This document shows positions 2,550 to 61,440 of a stretch of DNA of 64,000 nt, piece after piece (the stretch's first letter is position 1; each line of letters opens with the position of its first letter). The position numbers and the translations under genes are program-made. This stretch comes from Clostridiales bacterium. Lineage in GTDB: Bacteria; Bacillota; Clostridia; Oscillospirales; CAG-272. The stretch spans positions 18,383 through 82,382 of the forward strand of contig JAJQCT010000038.1 in the NCBI GenBank assembly GCA_021202555.1, read 5' to 3'. Below the pieces are notes generated by a model. It had not been told where the DNA came from. It was given only the letters and a program-made list of their open reading frames with translations, and did no database searches.

Positions 2550-3568
2550 GAATCATAATTGACGCGATGGGCGGCGACAACGCCCCCGCAGCCGTTATCG
2601 AGGGCGCGAATATCGCGAAAGCCGAATACGGCGGCAAATTTGAAATGACGCTCGTCGGAGACGAGAGCGCCATAAAAAAAGCCGCGTCCGAGGGCGGTTT
2701 TTCGCTCGACGGAATCGATATTTACCATACGGACGTGAAAATTGAGATGGACGACGACCCGATGAACGCCGTTCGCAAGAAAAAGGAATCGTCAATGGCT
2801 ATAGGTCTTAAAATGCTCTCGCCCGACAACAAATACGGCGTCGTCGGCGACGCGTTTTTGTCTGCCGGCAGCACCGGCGCGCTTCATCTCGCCTCCTCAC
2901 ACTTTGTCGGAAGGCTTATGGGCGTTCGCCGCGCCTGCCTTGCGACGTATCTGCCGTTTCCGAATCCCATTCTGCTTCTTGATTCGGGTGCGAATCCGAC
3001 CGTCACGGCGGATCAGCTCCTCTCATGGGCTTATCTCGGCTCGGTATACGCCGAATCCGTTCTCGGAATGAAAAATCCCCGCGTCGGGCTTATAAACAAC
3101 GGCACGGAGGAATGCAAGGGTACTGAAATGTACATAGAGGCTCATAGGCTTCTTGCCGCCTCTGATCTCAATTTCGCCGGAAACGTCGAATCGCGAGAGA
3201 TTCCGTTCGGCGCCTGTGACGTGCTTGTGTGCGACGGTTTCACGGGCAATATAACCCTGAAGCTTATCGAGGGAATGGCGTCGTTTTTCATGAAATCGCT
3301 GAAGGATATATATAAATCGAGCACCGTCGCGAGCCTTTCATATTTGCCCGTGAGGTCAAAATTCGGAACGCTGAAGAAAAGCTTTGACGCCTCCGAGCAC
3401 GGCGGCGCGCCGATTCTCGGACTTAAAGCGCCCGTCATAAAGGGACACGGAAACTCTAACGGACGCGCAGTGTTTTCGGCGATACGTCAGGCGTACACGT
3501 GCGTCGAATCGGGAATGACGGCGAAAATGAGCGAAAATTTACAAAAAACAGGTAACGGCAATGACTGA
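2546..3568 (+). CDS. plsX: phosphate acyltransferase PlsX
   Basis: 340-aa ORF with the MRIIIDAMGGDNAP N-terminus and the KGHGNS block typical of PlsX. ATGA overlap with trmFO. Confidence 0.9.
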   Translation: MRIIIDAMGGDNAPAAVIEGANIAKAEYGGKFEMTLVGDESAIKKAASEGGFSLDGIDIYHTDVKIEMDDDPMNAVRKKKESSMAIGLKMLSPDNKYGVVGDAFLSAGSTGALHLASSHFVGRLMGVRRACLATYLPFPNPILLLDSGANPTVTADQLLSWAYLGSVYAESVLGMKNPRVGLINNGTEECKGTEMYIEAHRLLAASDLNFAGNVESREIPFGACDVLVCDGFTGNITLKLIEGMASFFMKSLKDIYKSSTVASLSYLPVRSKFGTLKKSFDASEHGGAPILGLKAPVIKGHGNSNGRAVFSAIRQAYTCVESGMTAKMSENLQKTGNGND

Positions 3569-4307
3569 CGACAATTTATCCCAATATCCGCTTCCGATAA
3601 ATATTCTTGAAGAGCGAATAGGCTACGTATTTTCCGACAAAAATCTCATAAAGACGGCGATGACGCATTCCTCATTCGCAAATGAAGCGCACGGCGGTGC
3701 GTCATGCTCGAACGAGAGAATGGAATTTTTCGGCGATTCGGTGCTGTCGCTCGTCGTGAGCGAATATCTCTTTGAAAATTACGAGGAGATGCAGGAGGGC
3801 GAGCTTACGCGAATCCGCTCCCGCCTCGTCTGTGAGGATGCGCTTGCTGAATATGCGGAAAAAATAAGTCTCGGCGACTTTCTCTATCTCGGACACGGAG
3901 AAGAAAAAAATAACGGACGCCGCCGGAAATCGACTGTTTCCGACGCGATGGAGGCGCTTCTTGCCGCCGTTTACATGGACGACGAGGGCGCGGGCGGCGA
4001 CGGCAAATCTGCGGTGTCGCGCATAATTCTCCCCTTTGTGATGGACGAACTTGAAAAGATAAGCGACATAACTGAATATTTCGATTACAAAACGCTACTC
4101 CAGCAGGTGGTGCAGCAGGGCGGAAGCGAGGCACTCGAATACGCGGTAACGGGCGAGTCGGGACCCGACCACGACAAAACCTTCAGCGTCGAGGTCAAGC
4201 TCAACAGCAACATCGTGGGACACGGCACAGGCAGATCAAAGCGCAGTGCCGAGCAGATGGCAGCAAAGGAAGCGCTCGGACTTTTCGGCGTTGATGTCGC
4301 GGGCTGA
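3561..4307 (+). CDS. rnc: ribonuclease III
   Basis: RNase III signature NERMEFFGDSVL and a C-terminal dsRNA-binding region (GPDHDKTFSVEV...SKRSAEQMAAKEAL). Overlaps the plsX stop. Confidence 0.9.
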   Translation: MTDDNLSQYPLPINILEERIGYVFSDKNLIKTAMTHSSFANEAHGGASCSNERMEFFGDSVLSLVVSEYLFENYEEMQEGELTRIRSRLVCEDALAEYAEKISLGDFLYLGHGEEKNNGRRRKSTVSDAMEALLAAVYMDDEGAGGDGKSAVSRIILPFVMDELEKISDITEYFDYKTLLQQVVQQGGSEALEYAVTGESGPDHDKTFSVEVKLNSNIVGHGTGRSKRSAEQMAAKEALGLFGVDVAG

Positions 4308-36742: not shown

Positions 36743-36790
36743 AGTATTCCTCGCTGACGAATAGCTTCAAATGAACAGAAAAAATGCTAT

Positions 36791-36821
36791 TCAGCCCTCG
36801 GTGTCAGGCACCGAGGGCTGA
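36791..36821. terminator. 13-bp hairpin between convergent clpC and histidine-kinase genes
   Basis: TCAGCCCTCGGTG tcagg CACCGAGGGCTGA. A T-run follows only on the minus strand (ATAGCATTTTTT). Confidence 0.6.
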
Positions 36822-36845
36822 ATAAGCTTGTGACATTATATTATA

Positions 36846-36936
36846 TCGTGCAGCGTACCCGTGAATATTGCGCTGCGCGCAATATTCACCAACTTGAAAG
36901 ACAAGGCATAGCCTTGTCTTTCAATGTTATATAATT
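36846..36936 (+). repeat. two-hairpin intergenic repeat element, copy A
   Basis: GTGAATATTGCGC tgc GCGCAATATTCAC (36861-36889), then TTGAAAGACAAGGC ata GCCTTGTCTTTCAA (36894-36924). The architecture and flanks recur at 44918-45019. Confidence 0.85.
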
Positions 36937-39422
36937 GGAAATTTTACTGTCGCCTTGAATAAATCGCCGTCGGTTGATACGGTGAGGCTGCCTCCCATCA
37001 GCTCGCAGAATGACTGCGCGATTGAAAGTCCAAGTCCGCTTCCTTCAGTCGTTCTGCTCGCGTCACCTCTTACAAATCTTTCCGTCAGATCCCTTGCGGA
37101 AACGGTGAGCGGCGTGCCGGAAATGTTCTTCATTGTCACGGCGACCGTACCGTCGCCCGACAGGCGCTCAATATCGAGATAAACGCGAGTTTTCGGAAGA
37201 GAATATTTGACGACATTTGAAAGCAGGTTGTCAAATACACGCCAGAGAAGCTTTCCGTCCGCCATTACGGTAATTTCGCTCTCGGGAAAATTACGTACAA
37301 TCGTAAGCCCCGCGGATTCAAGCAAATCCGAATATTCGCCTATCGCCTGCTCGGCGAGCTGGCAAAGCCCGACGGGCGTCGGCTCATAGTGAATATTCCC
37401 CGACTGCGCCTTTGACGCCTCGACCAGATCCTCCGTCAGGCGCTTGAGGCGCTGACTTTTGCGGTCTAAAACGTCAATATATTCACGCGCAGTCTCGCTT
37501 TCAATATTTTCGGATTTCAGTAAATCCACATAATTTATAATCGAGGTGAGCGGTGTTTTCAGGTCGTGCGATACGTTTGTTATAAGCTCCACCTTGAGCC
37601 GCTCGCTGCGCACCTTTTCATCAGCCGCGGCGCTTACAGCTCGGTCAAGCTCATTTAACGATTCCGCGAGCGGGCGAAGCGTCGGCGACATGAGCTTTGT
37701 CTCGATTTTCACGTCATGTCCGCCCGAAACGATTGTTTTTGTCGCGTCTGTGAGCTTTCTGAACTGGTATGCGGTGAGGCACACGTATGCCGCTGAGGCA
37801 ACAGTTACGGCAGCCCATATGAACATGAAAAGGAAGCACAGTCCACCGTCGGAAAACGCGAATATAAAGGTGAGGACGGCGCTTATTACTGCGAGCGCTG
37901 AGACAAGAGCGACCCTCCATATGAGCGGCACCGAATTTAATATTTTGCCGGCGCCCTTCCTTGCCGTGCGGCAGGTAAATGTCACAAGCATCACGCAGGC
38001 GTTGTTTTTGAGAAGATTTCTGTTTCTCACGTGGGCGATTATTGAAACAATCACCCCCTCGGTGACGGCGGCAACGACGAATATGCATAAAAATGAGACA
38101 GTGTAAACAAGCGGCGCGTTGCCTGAGATATATATAAGCGTTGCCGTCGGATAGATTTCTCCGTCTGCCGCCATAATAATCGGTACAAGCCCTATGCATG
38201 AGACAGCGGCAGAGAGTACTAAAAATACGTCAAACGGTATTCTGTTTATCCATGCGGGACGAATACACTTCACGCGGCGCTTTGTGCCGTCCTCGTCCCG
38301 TATACAGTCCTCCGCCATTCCCGACACCGCGGCAGAGTATATGAAAAGCAAAATCGAGATGACAAGACATGAGATAATAACCGGCAGCGCCGAGTTTTCG
38401 GCAAAGCTTTCAATCGGACTTAAAATGTCTCTGTAAATATAGAAGTAGTCGTCACGGGCAGAAAGATTTTCATCAAGCCAGACGTAAAGGTATTCGCCGT
38501 CTGAAAGCCCGTAGTACGCCGGCGCGACGCTTTCATAATTCCATGTGTTTGTCGAGGTGCTGTAGGTGAAAACATAACCTTCAATCTCCATAGGGTTTAA
38601 CACAGTGTCGATTGTCGGTACATAATATGCAGTAGTGTCGCCTTCGTCGATTACGAGAACAGATGTGTACCCGTTTTCGTCAGCGAAGGGGACTACAGTG
38701 TCAAAGCTCCATTCATCGTAACTGTCAATGTAGAAATCGAGATATTCAAGAGGGTAGTACCAGTTATCAAATCCGGCAAGGTAAGCCTCGTATGCATAGG
38801 ACTCGGTATAGCTGCCGTATTCGTCAATCCCTTCGGGATTACCTTCGGGATTACCTTCGGGCAGCACGTAATCATCATACGAATATGCGGTTACCTCTTC
38901 CTCCGTTGGTACCGAAGGAAAATAATATTTGCGTGCAGCATAACAGCTGATGTAGTCATCGTCATCGAGGCTGTCGATGAGCTCGTCAATATTCATCACC
39001 TTGATTTCAAAGCTGAGAGTATATGAAAAATTGCTCATTGTGATAACGTAGGATTCATAAAAGTTTGGAAGGGAGTCTGTATTGCCGTTAGTGACAGTTG
39101 TGTTGTCCTCACCTGTCACAATCCATCTGACGTTTGTGCTGTCCGCGTCAGCGTATGCTTCGCACAGGCGCTCATAGTACTGCTCATTTTCCGCCGACAG
39201 TACCGCTCCGTCGTCAATCTCCGATTTTATATTGAGCATTTCGGAGATTAAATTTGCGTCGTTTCGCAGCGCGTACAGTATCACGTCCGAATATTCGGAG
39301 TCGTAATACGGGTCGATGAAATCCGAATAAAGAGCCGTCACGACAAACATCAGAATCGCCGCCGTGAGCGCCGCCGCCGCGAGAATGAACGCTATGGTCT
39401 TTGTAACCGCACTGTATTTCAT
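36927..39422 (-). CDS. sensor histidine kinase with ~300-aa extracytoplasmic domain and multi-helix membrane block
   Basis: H-box NVSHDLKTPLTSI and HATPase blocks (DNLLSNVVKYS, GSGLGLSIAQ). N-terminal TM helix followed by a Tyr/Asp/Glu-rich extracellular region. Confidence 0.85.
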   Translation of the reverse strand: MKYSAVTKTIAFILAAAALTAAILMFVVTALYSDFIDPYYDSEYSDVILYALRNDANLISEMLNIKSEIDDGAVLSAENEQYYERLCEAYADADSTNVRWIVTGEDNTTVTNGNTDSLPNFYESYVITMSNFSYTLSFEIKVMNIDELIDSLDDDDYISCYAARKYYFPSVPTEEEVTAYSYDDYVLPEGNPEGNPEGIDEYGSYTESYAYEAYLAGFDNWYYPLEYLDFYIDSYDEWSFDTVVPFADENGYTSVLVIDEGDTTAYYVPTIDTVLNPMEIEGYVFTYSTSTNTWNYESVAPAYYGLSDGEYLYVWLDENLSARDDYFYIYRDILSPIESFAENSALPVIISCLVISILLFIYSAAVSGMAEDCIRDEDGTKRRVKCIRPAWINRIPFDVFLVLSAAVSCIGLVPIIMAADGEIYPTATLIYISGNAPLVYTVSFLCIFVVAAVTEGVIVSIIAHVRNRNLLKNNACVMLVTFTCRTARKGAGKILNSVPLIWRVALVSALAVISAVLTFIFAFSDGGLCFLFMFIWAAVTVASAAYVCLTAYQFRKLTDATKTIVSGGHDVKIETKLMSPTLRPLAESLNELDRAVSAAADEKVRSERLKVELITNVSHDLKTPLTSIINYVDLLKSENIESETAREYIDVLDRKSQRLKRLTEDLVEASKAQSGNIHYEPTPVGLCQLAEQAIGEYSDLLESAGLTIVRNFPESEITVMADGKLLWRVFDNLLSNVVKYSLPKTRVYLDIERLSGDGTVAVTMKNISGTPLTVSARDLTERFVRGDASRTTEGSGLGLSIAQSFCELMGGSLTVSTDGDLFKATVKFPII
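38830..38861 (-). repeat. 12-bp in-frame tandem repeat (2.7 copies) inside the kinase sensor domain
   Basis: CCTTCGGGATTA CCTTCGGGATTA CCTTCGGG on the plus strand, encoding PEGNPEGNPEG. Confidence 0.8.
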
Positions 39423-40318: not shown

Positions 40319-40368
40319 ATAAGCGTAGCACTGTGGCTACAGTATTTTTTGCTTTGAAAGGAATCACT

Positions 40369-41843
40369 ATGAGCAAGCTTGTCATCAACACCTATGACAA
40401 AAAGAGCCGTATCGATAAAAACATATACGGTAATTTCTCCGAGCATCTCGGACGCTGCATTTATAACGGCGTTTATGTCGGAGAGGGGTCGCCCATTCCG
40501 AACGAAAACGGAATGCGCACCGATATTGTGAACGCTCTTCGCGAAATGAAGCTTCCCGTGCTTCGCTGGCCGGGCGGATGCTTTGCGGACGAGTATCACT
40601 GGCGTGACGGAATCGGACCGAAGGAGTCGCGCAAGAAGATGGTAAATACGAACTGGGGCGGCGTCACCGAGGACAACAGCTTCGGAACTCACGAGTTTAT
40701 GGAGCTTTGTCGTCAGATCGGCTGCGAGCCTTACGTAAACGCTAACGTCGGGTCGGGCTCCGTGCAGGAAATGTCCGAGTGGATCGAGTACATGAATTTC
40801 GACGGCACCTCTCCTATGGCGGAGCTTCGCGAGAAAAACGGACATCCCGAGCCGTGGCATCTCAAATATCTCGGAATCGGAAACGAGAGCTGGGGATGCG
40901 GCGGAAACATGACGCCCGAATATTACGCAAACGAATTTAAGCGCTACAGCACATTCTGCCGCAATTACCCGGGCGGAAGGCTTTTCCGCATCGCCTGCGG
41001 TCCGAACGCGGAGGATTACAGATGGACAGAGGTTCTCATGCGCGAGGCGGGGCGCCACATGGACGGGCTTACGCTTCACTATTACACCGTTCCGAACGGC
41101 TGGGGTCTAAAGGCTCCGCGACGGGCTTTGACGAGAAGGAATGGTACAAAACGCTTCACACGGCGCTTCGCATGGAGGAAATCGTGACGGGTCACGAGGA
41201 AATCATGAATCGCTATGACCCGAGCAGGAGAGTAGCTCTCATCGTAGACGAATGGGGCACATGGTTCGATGTCGAGCCGGGAACAAACCCCGGATTCCTC
41301 TATCAGCAGTCAACGATGCGCGACGCGCTTGTCGCGGGCGTGACGCTCAATATCTTCAACGAGCACAGCGCGCGCGTCAGAATGGCGAATATCGCGCAGC
41401 TTATCAACGTGCTTCAGGCTGTCATTCTGACGGACGGCGAAAAGATGATTCTCACGCCTACATATCACGTTATGAAGATGTATTCGTGCCATCAGGACGC
41501 GAGACTCGTCGGCTCGTTTGTTGAAAAGCATCGCACGGGAGTTGAGGAAAGAGAATCCGTTCCCGACCTGCACCAGTCGGCGTCGATGACGGAGGATGGA
41601 ACGCTCAATATCACCGTCTGCAACCTTTCATGCAGCGAGGCGCGTGAGATTGAAGGTACTATCGTTGGCATGAAGCCGTCGGAGGTCAGCGCCGAAATCC
41701 TCACAAACAAGATGGATGCGTTCAATACATTTGAAAATCCGGATGTCGTTAAGACGGAGGCGTTTGACGGCGTGAAAATCACGGACGAGGGAATTTCATT
41801 CACGCTCCCGCCGTGCAGCGTCGCACATATCGCGCTGAAGTGA
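40369..41843 (+). pseudogene. abfA: GH51 alpha-L-arabinofuranosidase interrupted by a 1-nt frameshift
   Basis: Two overlapping ORFs (40333-41187 and 41022-41843) together read as one GH51 enzyme ([29 protein letters not shown], catalytic [11 protein letters not shown], then IVDEWGTW). The frame changes at GGGG 41102-41105. Confidence 0.85.
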
Positions 41844-42165: not shown

Positions 42166-42213
42166 TTGTGGGCAGGATACGTTTGCAGCGTATCCTGCCC
42201 ACAAAATTTTTTT
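42166..42213 (+). terminator. rho-independent terminator
   Basis: 16-bp stem TTGTGGGCAGGATACG / CGTATCCTGCCCACAA followed by AATTTTTTT. Confidence 0.85.
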
Positions 42214-44885: not shown

Positions 44886-44917
44886 ATAAACCCTCCGATG
44901 TATCAGAAATTTTATGC

Positions 44918-45044
44918 ATCATAAATTGAGCACTGTACCGTGAATATTGCGCTATGCGCAATATTCATCAGACTTGAAGAACAAAGCATAGCTTTGTTCT
45001 TCAATGTCATATTATATCATATTGAGCGCAGAACCGCAAATATT
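44918..45044 (+). repeat. two-hairpin repeat element, copy B (full unit plus a second 5' module)
   Basis: Hairpin 1 at 44940-44968, hairpin 2 at 44974-45004. The 5' module ATCATA(A)ATTGAGC..ACCG..AATATT occurs at 44918 and again at 45016. Confidence 0.85.
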
Positions 45045-45147
45045 TTTGTTTGAGCTGCCTTGAGCTTTGCGGCTTGGCAATTATGCACAAAATTTAAACT
45101 GGACATTTATATATAACGCCGAAAATAGTTTATTTTCAAAAATTGTC

Positions 45148-45176: not shown

Positions 45177-45250
45177 GATGACACAATATAATCATGACAG
45201 CGGACTGTGATTCACGGTATGGAGCATTATTATGTGCGGGAGATTTAATT

Positions 45251-46165
45251 ATGACAAAATGCGAAATCGGAAAAATAATAAAAAATCGGCGTGTTGAGCT
45301 GGGAATAAAGCAAAGTGAGCTTTGCTGCGGCATCTGCGATGAATCCGTTCTTTCGAGAATTGAAGCGGGAAGAAACTCCGGCAGCTACGAAATAAGAGCC
45401 CAGCTTATCGAGCGTCTCGGAATGTCAAGCGCAATTCTCGGCGAGCAAATTGACGAAAAGAATTACCTTGTGCGTCAGAAAATTCGTGAAGCAAATCTTG
45501 TATACTGCGATAACAAGCTGACGGAAGCGCTTGAAATGCTGAATGCGCTCAAAGCCGATTACGACAATTTTTCGACCGCAAACAAGCAGCGCTTTTGCAC
45601 TCTTTACACGCTTGTCTCGTATGATAACGGGGACATTTCAGATGAAGAGAGACTCTCTTCTTTTGAAGAGAGCCTCAAAATGACAGTTCCAAACTACAGT
45701 CTCGAAAATCTGCCGCCTTTAATGTCTAAAGCGGAACTCTACACTCTCGGACGTATTGCAACTACATACATTGTGTTCGATGAACACAAAAAAGCCGCCG
45801 GAATTTTGAGTCATACGAAAAAATTCGTCGAGGACTACTATGATGACAAATTGGCGGCGGCGGATTCACTGTCTTTAACGTGTTATAATCTTTCGCTGTG
45901 CCTCGGTCAGCTTAAGCAATACGATGAATGCATCGAGGTTGCACGACAGGGCATCGAATACAGTAGAAAAGCAGAAGACATGGCGGATTTTGCATGGTGT
46001 ATGTATAACTGTGCGTGGTCGCTTCTTTATCGGGGAGACCCGAGAGACAGATCGGAAGCCAAGAAACTGCTCGACAGCGCGGAACCAATAAGCTTAATCA
46101 AGGAAATAGACACAGAAAATTTGTCGAATTTAATCAAAGGTCTGCGTAAGAAATTTTCCCTCTAA
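45251..46165 (+). CDS. XRE-type HTH regulator with C-terminal TPR-like helical-repeat domain (Rgg/RNPP-like architecture)
   Basis: N-terminal HTH IGKIIKNRRVELGIKQSELCCGICDESVLSRIEAGR, then ~240 aa of predicted helical repeats. ATG 45251 has GGGAG upstream. The track start at 45194 lies too close to the promoter. Confidence 0.65.
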   Translation: MTKCEIGKIIKNRRVELGIKQSELCCGICDESVLSRIEAGRNSGSYEIRAQLIERLGMSSAILGEQIDEKNYLVRQKIREANLVYCDNKLTEALEMLNALKADYDNFSTANKQRFCTLYTLVSYDNGDISDEERLSSFEESLKMTVPNYSLENLPPLMSKAELYTLGRIATTYIVFDEHKKAAGILSHTKKFVEDYYDDKLAAADSLSLTCYNLSLCLGQLKQYDECIEVARQGIEYSRKAEDMADFAWCMYNCAWSLLYRGDPRDRSEAKKLLDSAEPISLIKEIDTENLSNLIKGLRKKFSL

Positions 46166-47704: not shown

Positions 47705-48973
47705 ATGAAAAAACACATTTTGAAGATTGTCGCGCTTGCGCTTGGAGCGGCACAGCTTTTACTGCTTTGCGCCTGCACGGGCGGGGATGAGAACAACGAA
47801 ACCGACAAGGGCGGCGAGAGCGTCGGCGTGACGGAAACCGGAACGGAAACGGCGGAGGAAACGACGGATTATCTCTCCATGCTGCCCGAAAATCCTGAGA
47901 TTCTATTTGACGGGGAAGGCGACGACACCGCTTGTCTTAAAGCGGGTCAACAGTATATCTACGGCGACTATATCTTTTATTACGATACGGACACATACAC
48001 CATAGATTATCGTTTCATCTCGTCACTTGATACTGAAGCCGTCACCGTTCCGCTTAATGGCGGGGAAAGCATATATAATCTGCTTTTCCTTGTTGATGAG
48101 GAGACGTCAGAGGAATACGGAACACCCGTGATTATCGCAAAATACAGCGTGACGGGCGAGGACGGAACGTATTATAAAATCGTTTCGATTGACCTTGCAT
48201 CCGGCACTGAATCTGTTATACTTGACAGCCTTACATATGCATATATCGAGTACCTTTATCTTTACGGCGACGACATCTTTTTTACATCATGCGACGAATA
48301 TCTCGACAACAGCCGCCTTCACCATGTGACGACGGCGGGTGACAACTACGCTGTGCTTGAACCGCCCGAAGAAGAGACAGGCTCGTACTTTGTCGAGACA
48401 GTATATGACGGACGGATTTATTACGGAATCGGTAACAATAGATATCGTCAGGTTTATTCGGCAACGCCAGAGTTTGAAGATACGGAATATGTTTTCGGCG
48501 CAAATCCCATGAACGAAAGCAATGTAACCGTCCAAAACGGATATATCATATATCCGAAAAACGGCTCTGAAATATATTTTTACGCTGACGACACGGAAGA
48601 AGCGGTAGTATATACTCTATATTATTCAGGAGAGCTTGTATGCAGCCCGCTCGATGACACGTCAACGGTATATACGCTTGCTTACGGAGTATATTCCTTT
48701 TACTGCGGCGGGGACTATATTTTTTACACGAGAACGACACCGCGGAATGCAACATCTCTACTTGCTGATTCGGGAACAAACGTAATGTATGCGTATTCGC
48801 AAAAAACGGGGATAACGACCGAGATTTATAATCTGGGCGACGCAGAGTACGTAAGATATGTGAGGATGATAACGGATAAATATATTTTGTTTGAGGATTG
48901 GTACAGCATAGAAAAATCCGATTATATTCTCTATGATATTGAAACAGGCGAGGAAACGGAAATACCGTACTGA
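47705..48973 (+). CDS. lipoprotein paralog 2, six-blade beta-propeller-like (DUF5050-like)
   Basis: AAAGGAG before ATG 47705. Lipobox LLCAC, an acidic linker, and motifs YGDYIFYY, YGDDIFFT, YDGRIYYG, NGYIIYP, GGDYIFYT, DKYILFE. The protein ends TGEETEIPY. Confidence 0.7.
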   Translation: MKKHILKIVALALGAAQLLLLCACTGGDENNETDKGGESVGVTETGTETAEETTDYLSMLPENPEILFDGEGDDTACLKAGQQYIYGDYIFYYDTDTYTIDYRFISSLDTEAVTVPLNGGESIYNLLFLVDEETSEEYGTPVIIAKYSVTGEDGTYYKIVSIDLASGTESVILDSLTYAYIEYLYLYGDDIFFTSCDEYLDNSRLHHVTTAGDNYAVLEPPEEETGSYFVETVYDGRIYYGIGNNRYRQVYSATPEFEDTEYVFGANPMNESNVTVQNGYIIYPKNGSEIYFYADDTEEAVVYTLYYSGELVCSPLDDTSTVYTLAYGVYSFYCGGDYIFYTRTTPRNATSLLADSGTNVMYAYSQKTGITTEIYNLGDAEYVRYVRMITDKYILFEDWYSIEKSDYILYDIETGEETEIPY

Positions 48974-49010
48974 CGATTTGCGCTATTTTATATCTGCGGA
49001 GGACGAATAA

Positions 49011-50141
49011 ATGAAAAAAATCGTATCTTTATTTTTGGCTATGCTGCTTGCGGTTGTCGCACCATGTGCGTTTTCTTCCTGTGAAAACGACGCTGACATA
49101 TCAGAGGCGATATATATAGATACATCGTCAAGACAGCCGTGTGTATACGATGATTATGTGTTTTATTTTGACACCGATACTCAAGAGGTGAATTATCAGA
49201 TTGTAACGAATGTTCAGCAGACGGGAATTTCAATAATTACCGACCCGCTGTCGGAGGGAGAGGATAACCCGCTGAATCAGATGCTTGTTTACTATTTTCT
49301 CGTTGACATTATCTCTTCCGACAAGAACGGACATTCGCCTGTTTTGCTGCTCGGGTGCATGGACTACAGCGATCCTTATGCGGAATCGGATTATAAGGTT
49401 ATTTCATATGATCTTGCGACAAATTCGCTCACTGTTCTTGCAAGCGGACTGTATAGTCCATTTCAGTCGTTTGCGGTATACGGCGAATATGTAATATTCA
49501 CAACACAGGACGGAGACGAGGGGTACAACGTACACTGTGTGAAAACTGACGGGACTGAATATGTTACGCTTGATAATCCCGAATGCAGCCTTTATCGCGT
49601 AAGATATGCATATGAGGATAAAATTTATTTTACCGATGCCGCATATCGGCTTTATTCCGCGCCATTTGACCTTTCCGAAAAGGAATATTTGTGCGATTTG
49701 CCCGCGTCATATGTTTCGCCGTTTATAAAGGACGATTACCTGATATTCTGCGGGGAATCCGAAAATATTCCCTTGGAGCTTGAGGATTCCGAAATGGAGT
49801 ATACATTGATTTCCGCCGACCTTTGCCGCCTACCGCTTTCCGATTTATCGGGAGATGCGGAGACGCTTGTTTCGGGCGTGAACGTCGGCAGATGCTACCG
49901 CGACAAATTTTACTATTACATCGCGGAAAACAGGGAAGGGACATATTATCTCAACACAGATACGCTTCATGTTTATTCGTTTGACACGATGACATCGGAG
50001 GTCGTATGGGAAAAGGACGGCGTCGGATATTACGCGGCGTTCTCCGACGAGTACATCATATACGAGGACACATACCCCGGTACAGCCTGCTATATTGCTT
50101 ACAATATAAATACAGGCGAGGAAACTGAAATACCGTACTGA
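49011..50141 (+). CDS. lipoprotein paralog 3, six-blade beta-propeller-like (DUF5050-like)
   Basis: Lipobox AFSSC. Motifs YDDYVFYF, YGEYVIFT, YEDKIYFT, KDDYLIFC, YRDKFYYY, SDEYIIYE. The protein ends TGEETEIPY. Confidence 0.7.
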   Translation: MKKIVSLFLAMLLAVVAPCAFSSCENDADISEAIYIDTSSRQPCVYDDYVFYFDTDTQEVNYQIVTNVQQTGISIITDPLSEGEDNPLNQMLVYYFLVDIISSDKNGHSPVLLLGCMDYSDPYAESDYKVISYDLATNSLTVLASGLYSPFQSFAVYGEYVIFTTQDGDEGYNVHCVKTDGTEYVTLDNPECSLYRVRYAYEDKIYFTDAAYRLYSAPFDLSEKEYLCDLPASYVSPFIKDDYLIFCGESENIPLELEDSEMEYTLISADLCRLPLSDLSGDAETLVSGVNVGRCYRDKFYYYIAENREGTYYLNTDTLHVYSFDTMTSEVVWEKDGVGYYAAFSDEYIIYEDTYPGTACYIAYNINTGEETEIPY

Positions 50142-50155
50142 CAAAAAATATCATG

Positions 50156-59667: not shown

Positions 59668-59740
59668 GTAATACGGCGCGATTTGCAAGCTTTGTCGGCT
59701 CAATGTTTATTTATGCGTGCTTGATTAAAACGTATCTTTA

Positions 59741-59810
59741 TGGTATAATAACATTGAGCGACGAAGCACAGATTCGCGTAAAATATTCACAGTACATCGC
59801 TCAATATGAT
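59741..59810 (-). repeat. short copy (C) of the repeat element, inverted orientation
   Basis: The reverse complement reads ATCATATTGAGCGATGTACTGTGAATATT...TCAATGTTATTATACC, matching the 5' and 3' modules of copies A and B. Internal 9-bp inverted repeat ATTGAGCGA/TCGCTCAAT. Confidence 0.5.
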
Positions 59811-59859
59811 TTACTGAATATGAGGTCGGAAATACAAAAAAACAAACGGAGAAAATGAG

Positions 59860-61440
59860 ATGGCGACATACTTGAATCCCGGGAACGAATCGTTCAGGGT
59901 AATACGAAACGGGAAATATGTGGATAAAACCGGTCTTGTCGATTACATCAACGGCACGATTGACACGCCGTTCAAGATGACGTGCTTCTCGCGCGCGAGA
60001 CGCTTTGGAAAATCTTTTGCCGCTAAAATGCTCTGCTCGTATTATGATAAAACGTGCGATTCTCACGAGCTGTTCGACGATCTTGAAGTCGCAAAGTGCT
60101 TATCATATGAAAAGCATATCAACAAATACGATGTCATTTACCTTGACATGACGTGGTTTATTTCGACAACAGAGGATATAAAGCACATAGTCGGGGACAT
60201 CCAGAAGAGCGTAATCGACGAGCTCAATGAATGCTATCCGAACGCACGGGTTGGTGGTGAAACGTCGCTCCCTCGCGCGCTTTTGAAAGCGGTTAGTTAT
60301 ACGGGCGACAAATTTATCGTAATTATTGACGAATGGGATGCACTTTTCCGCGAGGCGAAGGATGACGACGCGCTTCAGCGGGAATACGTGCAGCTTCTGC
60401 GCGGGCTTTTCAAGGGCGGTGCCGCCACGGACAAATCAATCGCCGCCGCTTATATGACGGGGATTCTGCCCATCAAAAAGTATGGCACACAGTCAGCGCT
60501 TACGGATTTCAAGGAATATACGATGGTTGAGCCGCTCGCCCTTTCTGAATACGTGGGATTTACCGAGGACGAGGTGAAATCGCTGTGCAAAGAATACAAC
60601 ATGGATTTTGACGAGATGAAAAAATGGTACGATGGGTACGCATTCTCGGAAATAAAATCTGTATACAACCCTAATTCCGTGATGAACGCCATCAAATTCA
60701 GAAAATTCCGCAGCTACTGGACGTCGTCGGAGACATACGAATCGCTCAAAAGCTATATCGGTATGAATTTCAACGGGCTGAAGGATGCGATAGTCTCAAT
60801 GCTGGGCGGGGAAAAGATTCGTGTGAACACCGTGCGCTTTCAAAACGATGTGACATCATTTGAAAGCAGGGACGATGTGCTGACGCTTCTCGTTCACTTG
60901 GGGTATCTTGCATACGACGAAATAGAAAGGGGAACGTATATTCCGAATCTTGAGGTATCGGATTCGTTTGAAGCCGCAGTCGAGGGACGGGAATGGGGAA
61001 TCGTAGAAAAAGCCATTGCCGACTCGGATAAGCTTTTGGATGCAACAATCAAAGGCGACGCTGATGCGGTGGCAGCGGCACTTGAAAAAATACATGAGTC
61101 GAATTTCTCGATTCTCAAGTATAACGACGAAAATTCGCTTTCATGTGCAGTAACAATCGCGTACTATACTGCACGCAGCCATTACCGGATAATACGCGAA
61201 TTTCCCTCCGGGCGCGGTTTTGCGGACATCGCATTCCTTCCCTATAAAAGCACGGACAAGCCCGCGATGATAGTCGAGCTGAAATACAACAAAGACGCGG
61301 ATACGGCGATACGCCAGATAAAAGAAAAGCGCTATGATGGAAAAATGCGCGAATACTGCGGAAGCGACAATCTTATCCTTGTTGGAATCAACTACGACCG
61401 TGAGACAAAAAAACATTCCTGTTTGATTGAAAGAATATAA
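59860..61440 (+). CDS. predicted AAA-ATPase fused to PD-(D/E)XK nuclease-like domain (AAA-ATPase_like + PDDEXK_9 architecture)
   Basis: N-terminal FRVIRNGKYVDKTGLVDYIN...FSRARRFGKSF (Walker-A-like RRFGKS), a IIDEWD Walker-B-like block, and C-terminal GRGFADIAF...MIVELKYN resembling D..(D/E)xK nuclease motifs. Confidence 0.7.
   Translation: MATYLNPGNESFRVIRNGKYVDKTGLVDYINGTIDTPFKMTCFSRARRFGKSFAAKMLCSYYDKTCDSHELFDDLEVAKCLSYEKHINKYDVIYLDMTWFISTTEDIKHIVGDIQKSVIDELNECYPNARVGGETSLPRALLKAVSYTGDKFIVIIDEWDALFREAKDDDALQREYVQLLRGLFKGGAATDKSIAAAYMTGILPIKKYGTQSALTDFKEYTMVEPLALSEYVGFTEDEVKSLCKEYNMDFDEMKKWYDGYAFSEIKSVYNPNSVMNAIKFRKFRSYWTSSETYESLKSYIGMNFNGLKDAIVSMLGGEKIRVNTVRFQNDVTSFESRDDVLTLLVHLGYLAYDEIERGTYIPNLEVSDSFEAAVEGREWGIVEKAIADSDKLLDATIKGDADAVAAALEKIHESNFSILKYNDENSLSCAVTIAYYTARSHYRIIREFPSGRGFADIAFLPYKSTDKPAMIVELKYNKDADTAIRQIKEKRYDGKMREYCGSDNLILVGINYDRETKKHSCLIERI

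Follow-up and report, generated by a model that had tools for sequence, protein, structure and literature searches.

Analysis of a 64-kb stretch of DNA (the window, that is, the whole stretch analysed) revealed a repeat family that is real, recurrent and previously uncatalogued, and that belongs to one uncultured gut-type Clostridia lineage; repeats of this kind are already known in bacteria. The family exists as tandem arrays, the number of units and the type of hairpin vary by strain, and identical variants are found at unrelated loci. We interpret it, with a probability of roughly 0.55, as a lineage-specific, multi-copy, modular, promoter-bearing intergenic DNA repeat resembling the BOX, BIME and Correia elements. 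An earlier note on this DNA had described a two-hairpin intergenic element; its account of the hairpins stands, but it had recognised neither the promoter box nor the tandem arrays, nor the order that emerges on the minus strand.

Structure of the unit and its promoter-like box

The unit is approximately 100 nt long and reads, on the minus strand in copies A and B, in the order extended -10 box, hairpin 2 (hp2), hairpin 1 (hp1), linker and usually a second -10 box (Table 1). Hairpin 2 begins 4-6 nt past the -10 box and hp1 5-6 nt past hp2, while 3' of hp1 lies the conserved linker GGT(G/A)CAG(C/T)GCT, the unit linker being GGTGCAGCGCT. Inspection of copies A and B confirmed the layouts, stems and loops reported for both (hp1 of copy B at 44941-44967), as well as the three differences between their hp2 arms, each of which is matched by a change in the partner arm. 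The flanks that had been noted as conserved are real: 'CAATGTYAT..TATA' is the reverse complement of TATGATATAAT and 'TGTACC(C)G' is the conserved linker. The 14-bp stem given for hp2 is correct as far as it goes, but three to four more pairs follow past a bulged A, so that the hairpin reads (T)AAC-A-stem-GTT(G) in copy A (outer pairs TAAC/GTTG, bulged A at 36925) and GAC-A-stem-GTC in copy B (outer pairs GAC/GTC, bulged A at 45005). Across the units hp2 is prolonged by 3-4 bp beyond a bulged A or G, and the TAAC/GTTA of some units covaries with the AGAC/GTCT of others.

Table 1. Positions of the repeat copies and of the adjoining terminator in the window
Feature	Position	Strand	Sequence or remark
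Copy A, leading -10-like box, degenerate	36926..36936	-	minus-strand AATTATATAAC
Copy A, hp2, whole	36890..36929	-	inner perfect 14-bp stem 36894-36924; minus-strand loop TAT (plus strand ATA)
Copy A, hp1, type I	36861..36889	-	perfect 13-bp stem GTGAATATTGCGC; minus-strand loop GCA (plus strand TGC)
Copy A, linker and trailing -10-like box	36835..36860	-	linker GGGTACGCTGCAC; box GATATAATATAAT
Intrinsic terminator with T-tract, end of kinase operon	36787..36825	-	
Copy B, leftover of preceding unit	45022..45045	-	AAATATTTGCGGTTCTGCGCTCAA (hp1 right foot and linker)
Copy B, extended -10 box	45011..45021	-	TATGATATAAT (TGnTATAAT)
Copy B, hp2, whole	44971..45008	-	inner perfect 14-bp stem 44974-45004; minus-strand loop TAT
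Copy B, hp1, type I	44941..44967	-	perfect 12-bp stem and terminal G-T; minus-strand loop ATA (plus strand TAT)
Copy B, linker and trailing -10-like box, degenerate	44909..44940	-	linker CGGTACAGTGCTC; box TATGATGCATAAAAT
Copy C, degenerate, internally deleted	59736..59815	+	profile search over all fetched sequence, E = 4e-6

Copy A is located between convergent genes and begins at the stop codon of a histidine kinase gene of 831 aa on the minus strand. Its leading box holds the TAA stop codon of this gene (36927-36929), and since the stop codon lies inside the degenerate -10-like box, insertion of the element may have reshaped the 3' end of the kinase gene. The kinase (36927-39422, minus strand), which adjoins copy A, is 831, 825, 835 or 677 aa long in different strains (orthologues in L147, L148 and L150). 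A strong T-tract terminator lies 3' of copy A on the minus strand and places copy A within the 3' UTR of the kinase operon.

Copy B lies on the minus strand directly 5' of an M20 dipeptidase gene, its trailing box approximately 25 nt 5' of the ribosome binding site and the ATG (44885). The remnant of a preceding unit supplies a -35-like TTGCGG (45034-45039) located 17 nt 5' of the -10 box. In addition to the two copies already described, a degenerate third one, copy C, had been overlooked; a -35-like TTGATT (59721-59726) lies just 5' of it and its box TATGGTATAAT (59739-59749) is intact. The left arm of hp2, TTGAGCGACGAAGC (59754-59767), is followed by the loop ACA and then by a jump to the right arm of hp1 (59771-59790), so that the internal deletion spans from the hp2 loop to the hp1 loop, and the copy ends with the linker and a trailing box. 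Copy C is approximately 45 nt upstream of the co-oriented ORF 59860-61440 (AAA-ATPase/PDDEXK_9). The remaining part of the window is core chromosome, carrying topA, trmFO, plsX, rnc, ftsY, clpC, ispDF and others.

Degenerate pattern searches of the window allowing up to three mismatches returned copies A and B only, and dinucleotide-shuffled sequence gave no matches to the hairpin patterns. Fold z-scores of the copies against shuffles ranged from -6.7 to -8.7 (RNA) and from -5.7 to -8.9 (DNA) on either strand. A census of hairpins in the window showed that all other long hairpins are ordinary terminators with A/T tracts, and the true terminators of the window carry clean T-tracts; a 17-bp hairpin at 42166-42204 (+), upstream of a DUF3793 gene, is such an ordinary terminator and is followed by AAAATTTTTTT. 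No U-run follows hp1 on either strand, while hp2 read on the plus strand is followed by an interrupted YGUUAUUAUAU that was flagged as terminator-like for copy A only. The earlier conclusion that the hairpins are not ordinary terminators is supported, although the claim that they lack any U-tract holds only roughly, hp2 of copy A on the plus strand being followed by TGTTATATAA and scored terminator-like by a simple scan.

The box TATG(A/G)TATAAT, which reads TGATATAAT or TGGTATAAT, is retained in most of the leading and internal positions examined, and its sole common variation (A to G) falls on the free 'n' of TGnTATAAT. In first units, locus-specific -35-like hexamers were found 17-18 nt upstream, namely TTGACA (L026), TTGCTA (L011), TTGCGA (L008), TTGCGG (copy B) and TTGATT (copy C), while in internal units a weak -35 (TTGCGG, TTCACG or TTACGG) is supplied by the 3' foot of hp1. 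The features of a sigma-70/SigA extended -10 promoter are thus present by sequence: TGnTATAAT with its free n, a -35-like hexamer at 17-18 nt and a co-oriented gene. We infer that the box of the element is a promoter, and its sequence predicts a strong one. A simple -35/-10 promoter scan of the window did not call the promoter of the element, which was missed because the -35 is weak.

Seven of the eight loci are co-oriented with the adjacent downstream gene, an orientation bias that is not significant at this number of loci (p = 0.07, n = 8). The downstream genes are unrelated to one another and comprise the M20 dipeptidase, tilS, hicAB, the AAA-ATPase and ORFs at L008, L012 and L018, the first residues of the last being hydrophobic. 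The hicAB case is a two-unit array at L026 6864-7542 (-) in the metagenome-assembled genome (MAG) U.5_11, directly 5' of a small two-gene operon whose translations resemble a hicA-hicB toxin-antitoxin. The exception among the eight loci is copy A, which is not upstream of any gene and is decaying. Copy C has lost its hairpins and kept the box, while in copy A, located in a 3' UTR, the box is degenerate.

Distribution and strain-to-strain turnover

An hp1-pattern scan of one genome per GTDB species gave 26 hits, of which the real matches were five loci in two MAGs, four contigs of 'Bacillota bacterium U.5_11' and one contig of 'Lachnospiraceae bacterium MI.11_2'; the remaining hits were chance palindromes. 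Contigs L011, L012 and L026 of U.5_11 carry tandem pairs of units and a further copy is present at L018. The second units of U.5_11 have another, longer hp1 (type II) which shares only the AATATT foot. Relatives of the element were seen only in sister MAGs of approximately 95% nucleotide identity and in these two other MAGs, in arrays of one or two units. In the 64 kb the element occupies three loci, and MAG U.5_11 has at least four; a further stretch of approximately 7 kb, read in sister strains beyond the end of the window, contained none. The third copy in the window and the copies in relatives bear out the claim that the intergenic element is recurrent, and the copies sought in GTDB and in the sister genomes differ in their stems by changes that are overwhelmingly compensatory.

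A blastn search against plasmid and phage collections gave no match to the element, nor is it present 5' of the M20 peptidase orthologues with 71% and 58% protein identity, whose upstream regions are ordinary. Two scans with the generic unit pattern returned chance matches, a single giant-virus gene in IMG/VR and 108 of 108 stretches without stem complementarity in the JGI metagenomes.

The type I hp1 is near-invariant between loci, including L018, which belongs to a MAG deposited under a different taxon label. Near-invariance of hp1, together with its overlap with the -35 of the next promoter, would also suit palindromes that serve as operators of a dimeric transcription factor with a regulon of unrelated genes. 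We regard operators as highly improbable, given that arms of 12-18 bp far exceed the length of a half-site, that the variants of hp2 and of type II hp1 are wholly different in sequence while pairing is kept, and that the units are tandem and variable in number.

Five sister MAGs, reached via protein-cluster members and showing approximately 95% DNA identity over the region, allowed the three loci to be compared between strains. At locus B the flanks are conserved while the array differs by strain, with one or two units and different hp2 types. The window has one unit with the hp2 type AGAACAAAGC; in L148 this unit comes second in an array of two, L145 and L150 carry a recombinant of the two L148 units, and L147 has two units with other hp2 types. 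Locus C consists of one intact unit in L152, two in L154 and the deleted unit in the window. At locus A, hp2 is present in all strains, with single mismatches in two, whereas hp1 has an A-A mismatch in one strain and is missing from three of five sister loci, the deletions having left two distinct junction sequences. Identical hp2 arms occur at unrelated loci of different genomes: the arms of L011b equal those of the first unit at locus B of L147 (B_L147_1), and those of L012a equal the first unit at locus B of L148 (B_L148_1).

The big differences in hairpins between strains at one locus are thus whole-unit gain, loss and exchange, not evolution in place. Hypermutation of hp2 at locus B was ruled out, as L148 shows that the strain differences are whole-unit loss and recombination. 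The turnover of units, the shared variants and the absence from distant relatives show a repeat family with turnover, not a conserved leader.

Four breaks in independent Logan assemblies fall inside hp1, and k=31 Logan contigs stop exactly within hp1 (…AATATTGCGC…) at loci A, B and C (both ends of L142, the starts of L149 and L153). Contig L142 (8.1 kb) is exactly the segment between copies B and A. The breaks inside hp1 are consistent with repetition; the cause of the fragmentation of short-read assemblies by the element would be either repetition or mixed loop orientations.

Some further observations concern other parts of the window. The alpha-L-arabinofuranosidase gene at 40333-41843 (+) is divided between two ORFs that overlap (284 and 273 aa) in the window and in a Logan assembly of the same sample, and is a single ORF of 491 aa in the sister genomes; the split gene is probably a frameshift or a pseudogene. 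Divergent from the M20 gene, positions 45194-46165 (+) encode a 323-aa protein with a weak RNPP-family match at the C-terminus, followed 3', up to approximately 49000, by several unannotated ORFs with a faint DUF5050 match. The gene content of this RNPP-like locus varies in the sister strains (304, 247 or 364 aa), and the region from 45194 to approximately 49000 may be a variable quorum-sensing-type regulator locus. A direct repeat of 52 nt (48923-48974 and 50091-50142, 83% identity, 1168 nt apart) lies at the 3' ends of adjacent ORFs and suggests tandemly duplicated paralogous genes.

Covariation and loop inversion in the hairpins

Alignment of 18 hp2 copies revealed that 97.6% of 248 pair cells are Watson-Crick, and that two or more pair types are found at eight of the 14 inner positions. 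Among the 13 distinct sequences, 96.6% of the cells are paired as compared with 84% in shuffles, and both sides have changed in nine of 18 pairs. The covariation score was 0.442 against 0.188 and was reached by none of 500 shuffles, while slid controls were paired in 27-48%. Covariation is strong in hp2 and at the base of hp1, and the structure of hp2 is clearly constrained; the covarying helices looked for in a generic structured RNA are found in hp2.

The non-Watson-Crick cells of hp2 number six in 248, with one G-T on the promoter-sense strand against two A-C, and the extended hp2 set contains three independent A-C or C-A cells, which would be G-U on the opposite strand. No excess of G-U was found among approximately 250 hp2 pair cells on either strand, and an RNA helix would be expected to tolerate wobble pairs more than either strand does. 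The loops and the linkers between the stems vary, with no conserved unpaired nucleotides and no conserved loop sequence. Three further marks of a structured RNA were absent among the copies compared: G-U tolerance on the sense strand, conservation of unpaired nucleotides, and a link to a single gene family or pathway.

The sense-strand loops are purine-N-A in 37 of 43 hairpins. All three T-N-Y exceptions are TAT, the inverse of the commonest loop ATA, and two of the three are the hp2 loops of the window, for which the sister orthologues, where the unit is present, have ATA (four at locus A, one at locus B). Logan data from the same sample, assembled independently, show the loop flip of locus A as well. 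In hp2 the bulged base is always on the same (5') arm. Template switching at hairpins is documented, and produces multi-base compensatory changes and loop inversions in one step (PMC8794818); at 5% divergence, one event is a far more likely source of an inverted 3-nt loop than three substitutions. Taken together, the lack of wobble tolerance, the loop flips and the documented template switching argue that perfect pairing in the palindromes is probably maintained, at least in part, by processes at the DNA level. The conserved class of loop and the bulge indicate that some strand-specific selection is superimposed. The strand asymmetry (37 of 43 loops and the same-arm bulge) points to selection on a single strand, RNA or ssDNA, and would be left unexplained by a pure duplex-DNA process.

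These data bear on the reading preferred in the earlier note, in which the covariation had been taken as evidence of selection on RNA or ssDNA: the covariation itself holds, and the conclusion drawn from it is weakened by the scarcity of wobble pairs, the loop inversions and the exchange of whole units. The corresponding explanation is a structured cis-acting RNA, whose hairpins would be selected in the 5' UTR (the 3' UTR for copy A) as a protein platform, as a control point for RNase III or RNase J, or as a leader, the compensatory changes representing purifying selection on RNA pairing. Such an RNA would account for the strong covariation in hp2 and at the hp1 base, the very stable folds, the purine-N-A loops of the sense strand with the bulge on the 5' arm, the start of hp2 at the predicted +1 and the orientation of seven of eight loci with the downstream gene. 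We consider it unlikely, however, because the downstream genes are functionally unrelated, neither unpaired nucleotides nor loop sequence are conserved, and the sense strand is not enriched in G-U, with one G-U against A-C or C-A at three independent sites. Moreover, the promoter box outlasts the hairpins, which have disappeared from three of the five sister copies of locus A and from locus C of the window, the orthologous 5' UTRs of relatives are without the element, and no Rfam family was found at threshold.

Comparison with known families and proposed behaviour of the units

A search of the window and seven loci with all 4227 Rfam families gave no hit at the gathering threshold, in agreement with the earlier statement that the element matches no curated RNA family. 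The best sub-threshold hit, obtained on the antisense strand of two independent copies, was ctRNA_pND324 (RF00238), which scored 33.9 and 35.9 bits where 45 would be required; the alignment spans the whole model, comprising two hairpins and the tail UUAUUAUAUCA, and in L011 the tail matches exactly over 11 nt. The family is a plasmid antisense copy-control RNA (PMC5812246). The ctRNA of lactococcal theta plasmids and the antisense strand of the element both have two hairpins of similar size and spacing and the AU-rich tail UUAUUAUAUCA, but the element is chromosomal and multi-copy, with no rep gene and no plasmid blastn match, and the likeness is mostly structural. The hit is a lead for a minor alternative, not evidence of membership.

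According to this alternative, the reverse strand (the plus strand of the window for copies A and B) would encode a countertranscript-like small RNA that runs from hp1 to hp2 and is the complement of the sense leader; its transcription would be driven from the next AT-rich -10 box, read in reverse, and would end at a weak terminator made of hp2 and the tail UUAUUAUAUCA. Besides the two full-length ctRNA_pND324 matches, the terminator-like score of copy A hp2 on the plus strand would agree with it. A sense/antisense cassette is nevertheless very unlikely: both scores are below the 45-bit gathering threshold, the E-value of approximately 1e-3 is valid for a 0.2-kb search only, the U-tract is interrupted, and neither a convincing antisense promoter nor a rep gene, plasmid context or plasmid blastn match was found.

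The BOX elements of Streptococcus pneumoniae are modular intergenic repeats of Firmicutes (boxA-boxB(n)-boxC) that form stable stem-loops and vary in the number of the internal module; they are often located beside gene starts, are able to alter expression and have no transposase of their own. The element described here is likewise a short modular intergenic Firmicutes repeat that forms stem-loops near gene starts. In contrast, BOX modules are not perfect palindromes and carry no consensus extended -10 box per unit, whereas here the whole unit of promoter and two palindromes is repeated; no sequence similarity was noticed by eye.

With REP and BIME sequences the element shares extragenic palindromes, tandem mosaics, conserved linkers, changes of copy number between strains and 3'-UTR copies that may act as mRNA stem-loops. 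REPs are palindromes of 20-40 nt with imperfect stems and a conserved GTAG-like tetranucleotide on the 5' side; they number tens to hundreds of extragenic copies per genome, often flank a RAYT gene, switch orientation from one to the next within BIMEs and are mostly located downstream of genes, while the element has two different perfect palindromes in direct order and a promoter box, and lies mostly upstream of genes. The GT(A/G)G tetranucleotide is not conserved at the 5' feet of the element, which read ...GTTAGAT(G/A)AATATT and ...AAC(A/G)TTGA, and the stems are perfect. Hairpins 1 and 2 of type I units share no arm sequence, unlike the similar end hairpins of IS200/IS605-type elements.

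A non-autonomous ssDNA transposable element, of the REP/REPIN and RAYT type or of the palindrome-associated IS200/IS605 type, would be served by a Y1 HUH transposase encoded elsewhere, and the box would be incidental or a target or cleavage site. The perfect Watson-Crick-only stems with a conserved base and a variable apex, the bulged base on one arm, the BIME-like tandem arrays, the identical variants at unrelated loci and the restriction to one lineage would all fit. Such a transposable element seems doubtful in view of the lack of a conserved GTAG-type tetranucleotide at the 5' foot and of the unlike hp1 and hp2, the left- and right-end hairpins of IS608-type elements resembling each other. 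In addition, orientation follows the downstream gene and not replication, copies A and B being on the minus and copy C on the plus strand of one uniformly skewed window. No Y1 transposase or RAYT was found among the ORFs scanned in the window (approximately 30 of approximately 60 genes) or among the Pfam-annotated neighbours at the sister loci, a result that has little bearing on the rest of the genome.

Small repeats that supply unrelated genes with strong outward promoters and form hairpins in transcripts, as proposed here, have precedents in the neisserial Correia elements (CREE) and in 'putative mobile promoters'; as a class, mobile repeats with promoters have been described before (PMC3575422). 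A Correia element has a TA target duplication, an IHF site and inverted repeats at its two ends that pair with each other; the element described here lacks such terminal repeats, its hairpins being local palindromes within tandem units. At its ends the -10 box region is repeated in direct orientation, unlike the ends of MITEs with terminal inverted repeats (Correia, RUP). Three other candidates were discarded. A switch in which the hp1 right arm would pair with the linker (GCGC...GCGC) is not borne out by type II units, where this pairing is not conserved; an attC/integron origin, suggested by the resemblance of GTTAGAT to GTTRRRY, lacks a complementary inverse core, cassettes and an integrase; and an invertible promoter would need a pair of repeats flanking the promoter, while the palindromes are each local.

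Under the favoured reading as a promoter-bearing repeat, each unit would consist, in the direction of the gene, of the extended -10 box (TGnTATAAT), hp2 with its base at the transcription start, hp1 and the linker GGTGCAGCGCT. The hp1 3' foot and the linker would provide a weak -35 for the next -10 box, so that units could stack head to tail and each array would end in a gene-facing promoter. Units are proposed to spread through transposition or gene conversion and to change in number by unequal recombination, and thus to behave as portable promoters. Neither a target-site duplication nor a clean empty site was seen in the 64-kb window and the approximately 70 kb of sister loci read, nor a transposase among the ORFs scanned there, so the proposed mobility is deduced from distribution only.

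In Firmicutes, a 5'-terminal stem-loop protects mRNA against 5'-end-dependent RNases. Transcripts of the arrays would start with such a stem-loop at the hp2 base, which may stabilise the mRNA, while the hairpins of copy A would act as 3'-UTR stem-loops. The Watson-Crick-perfect stems would be kept largely by template switching at the hairpins, in which one arm is copied onto the other and the loop can be inverted, with additional selection for hairpin formation accounting for the conserved purine-N-A loops and the bulge. RNase III is encoded in the window (3561-4307, plus strand), and long perfect stems such as hp2 (18-19 bp with the bulge) could be processed if transcribed.

A bolder version, which we hold to be rather improbable, is a self-propagating 'promoter cassette' in which tandem copy number and hairpin content would vary between strains rapidly enough to serve as a contingency mechanism for tuning the expression of neighbouring genes. 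The palindromes would be actively processed as hairpin DNA, with arm copying and flipping, possibly by an unrecognised hairpin-specific enzyme and not through passive replication errors. Such machinery would then have left its mark in the strict Watson-Crick pairing, the purine-N-A triloops of one strand, the constant bulge and the loop flips of both window copies.

A practical consequence is that short-read assemblies of these genomes are interrupted at the element. The repeat is also a clean natural case in which textbook 'compensatory substitutions' may stem from palindrome-specific mutation, by template switching and loop inversion, and not from selection at the RNA level, a caution for the discovery of RNAs based on covariation. 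If the promoter reading is true, the repeat rewires housekeeping genes of this uncultured gut-type Clostridia lineage and sets the dose of their transcription, and the differences between strains that are approximately 95% identical would be a compact natural example of promoter mobility.
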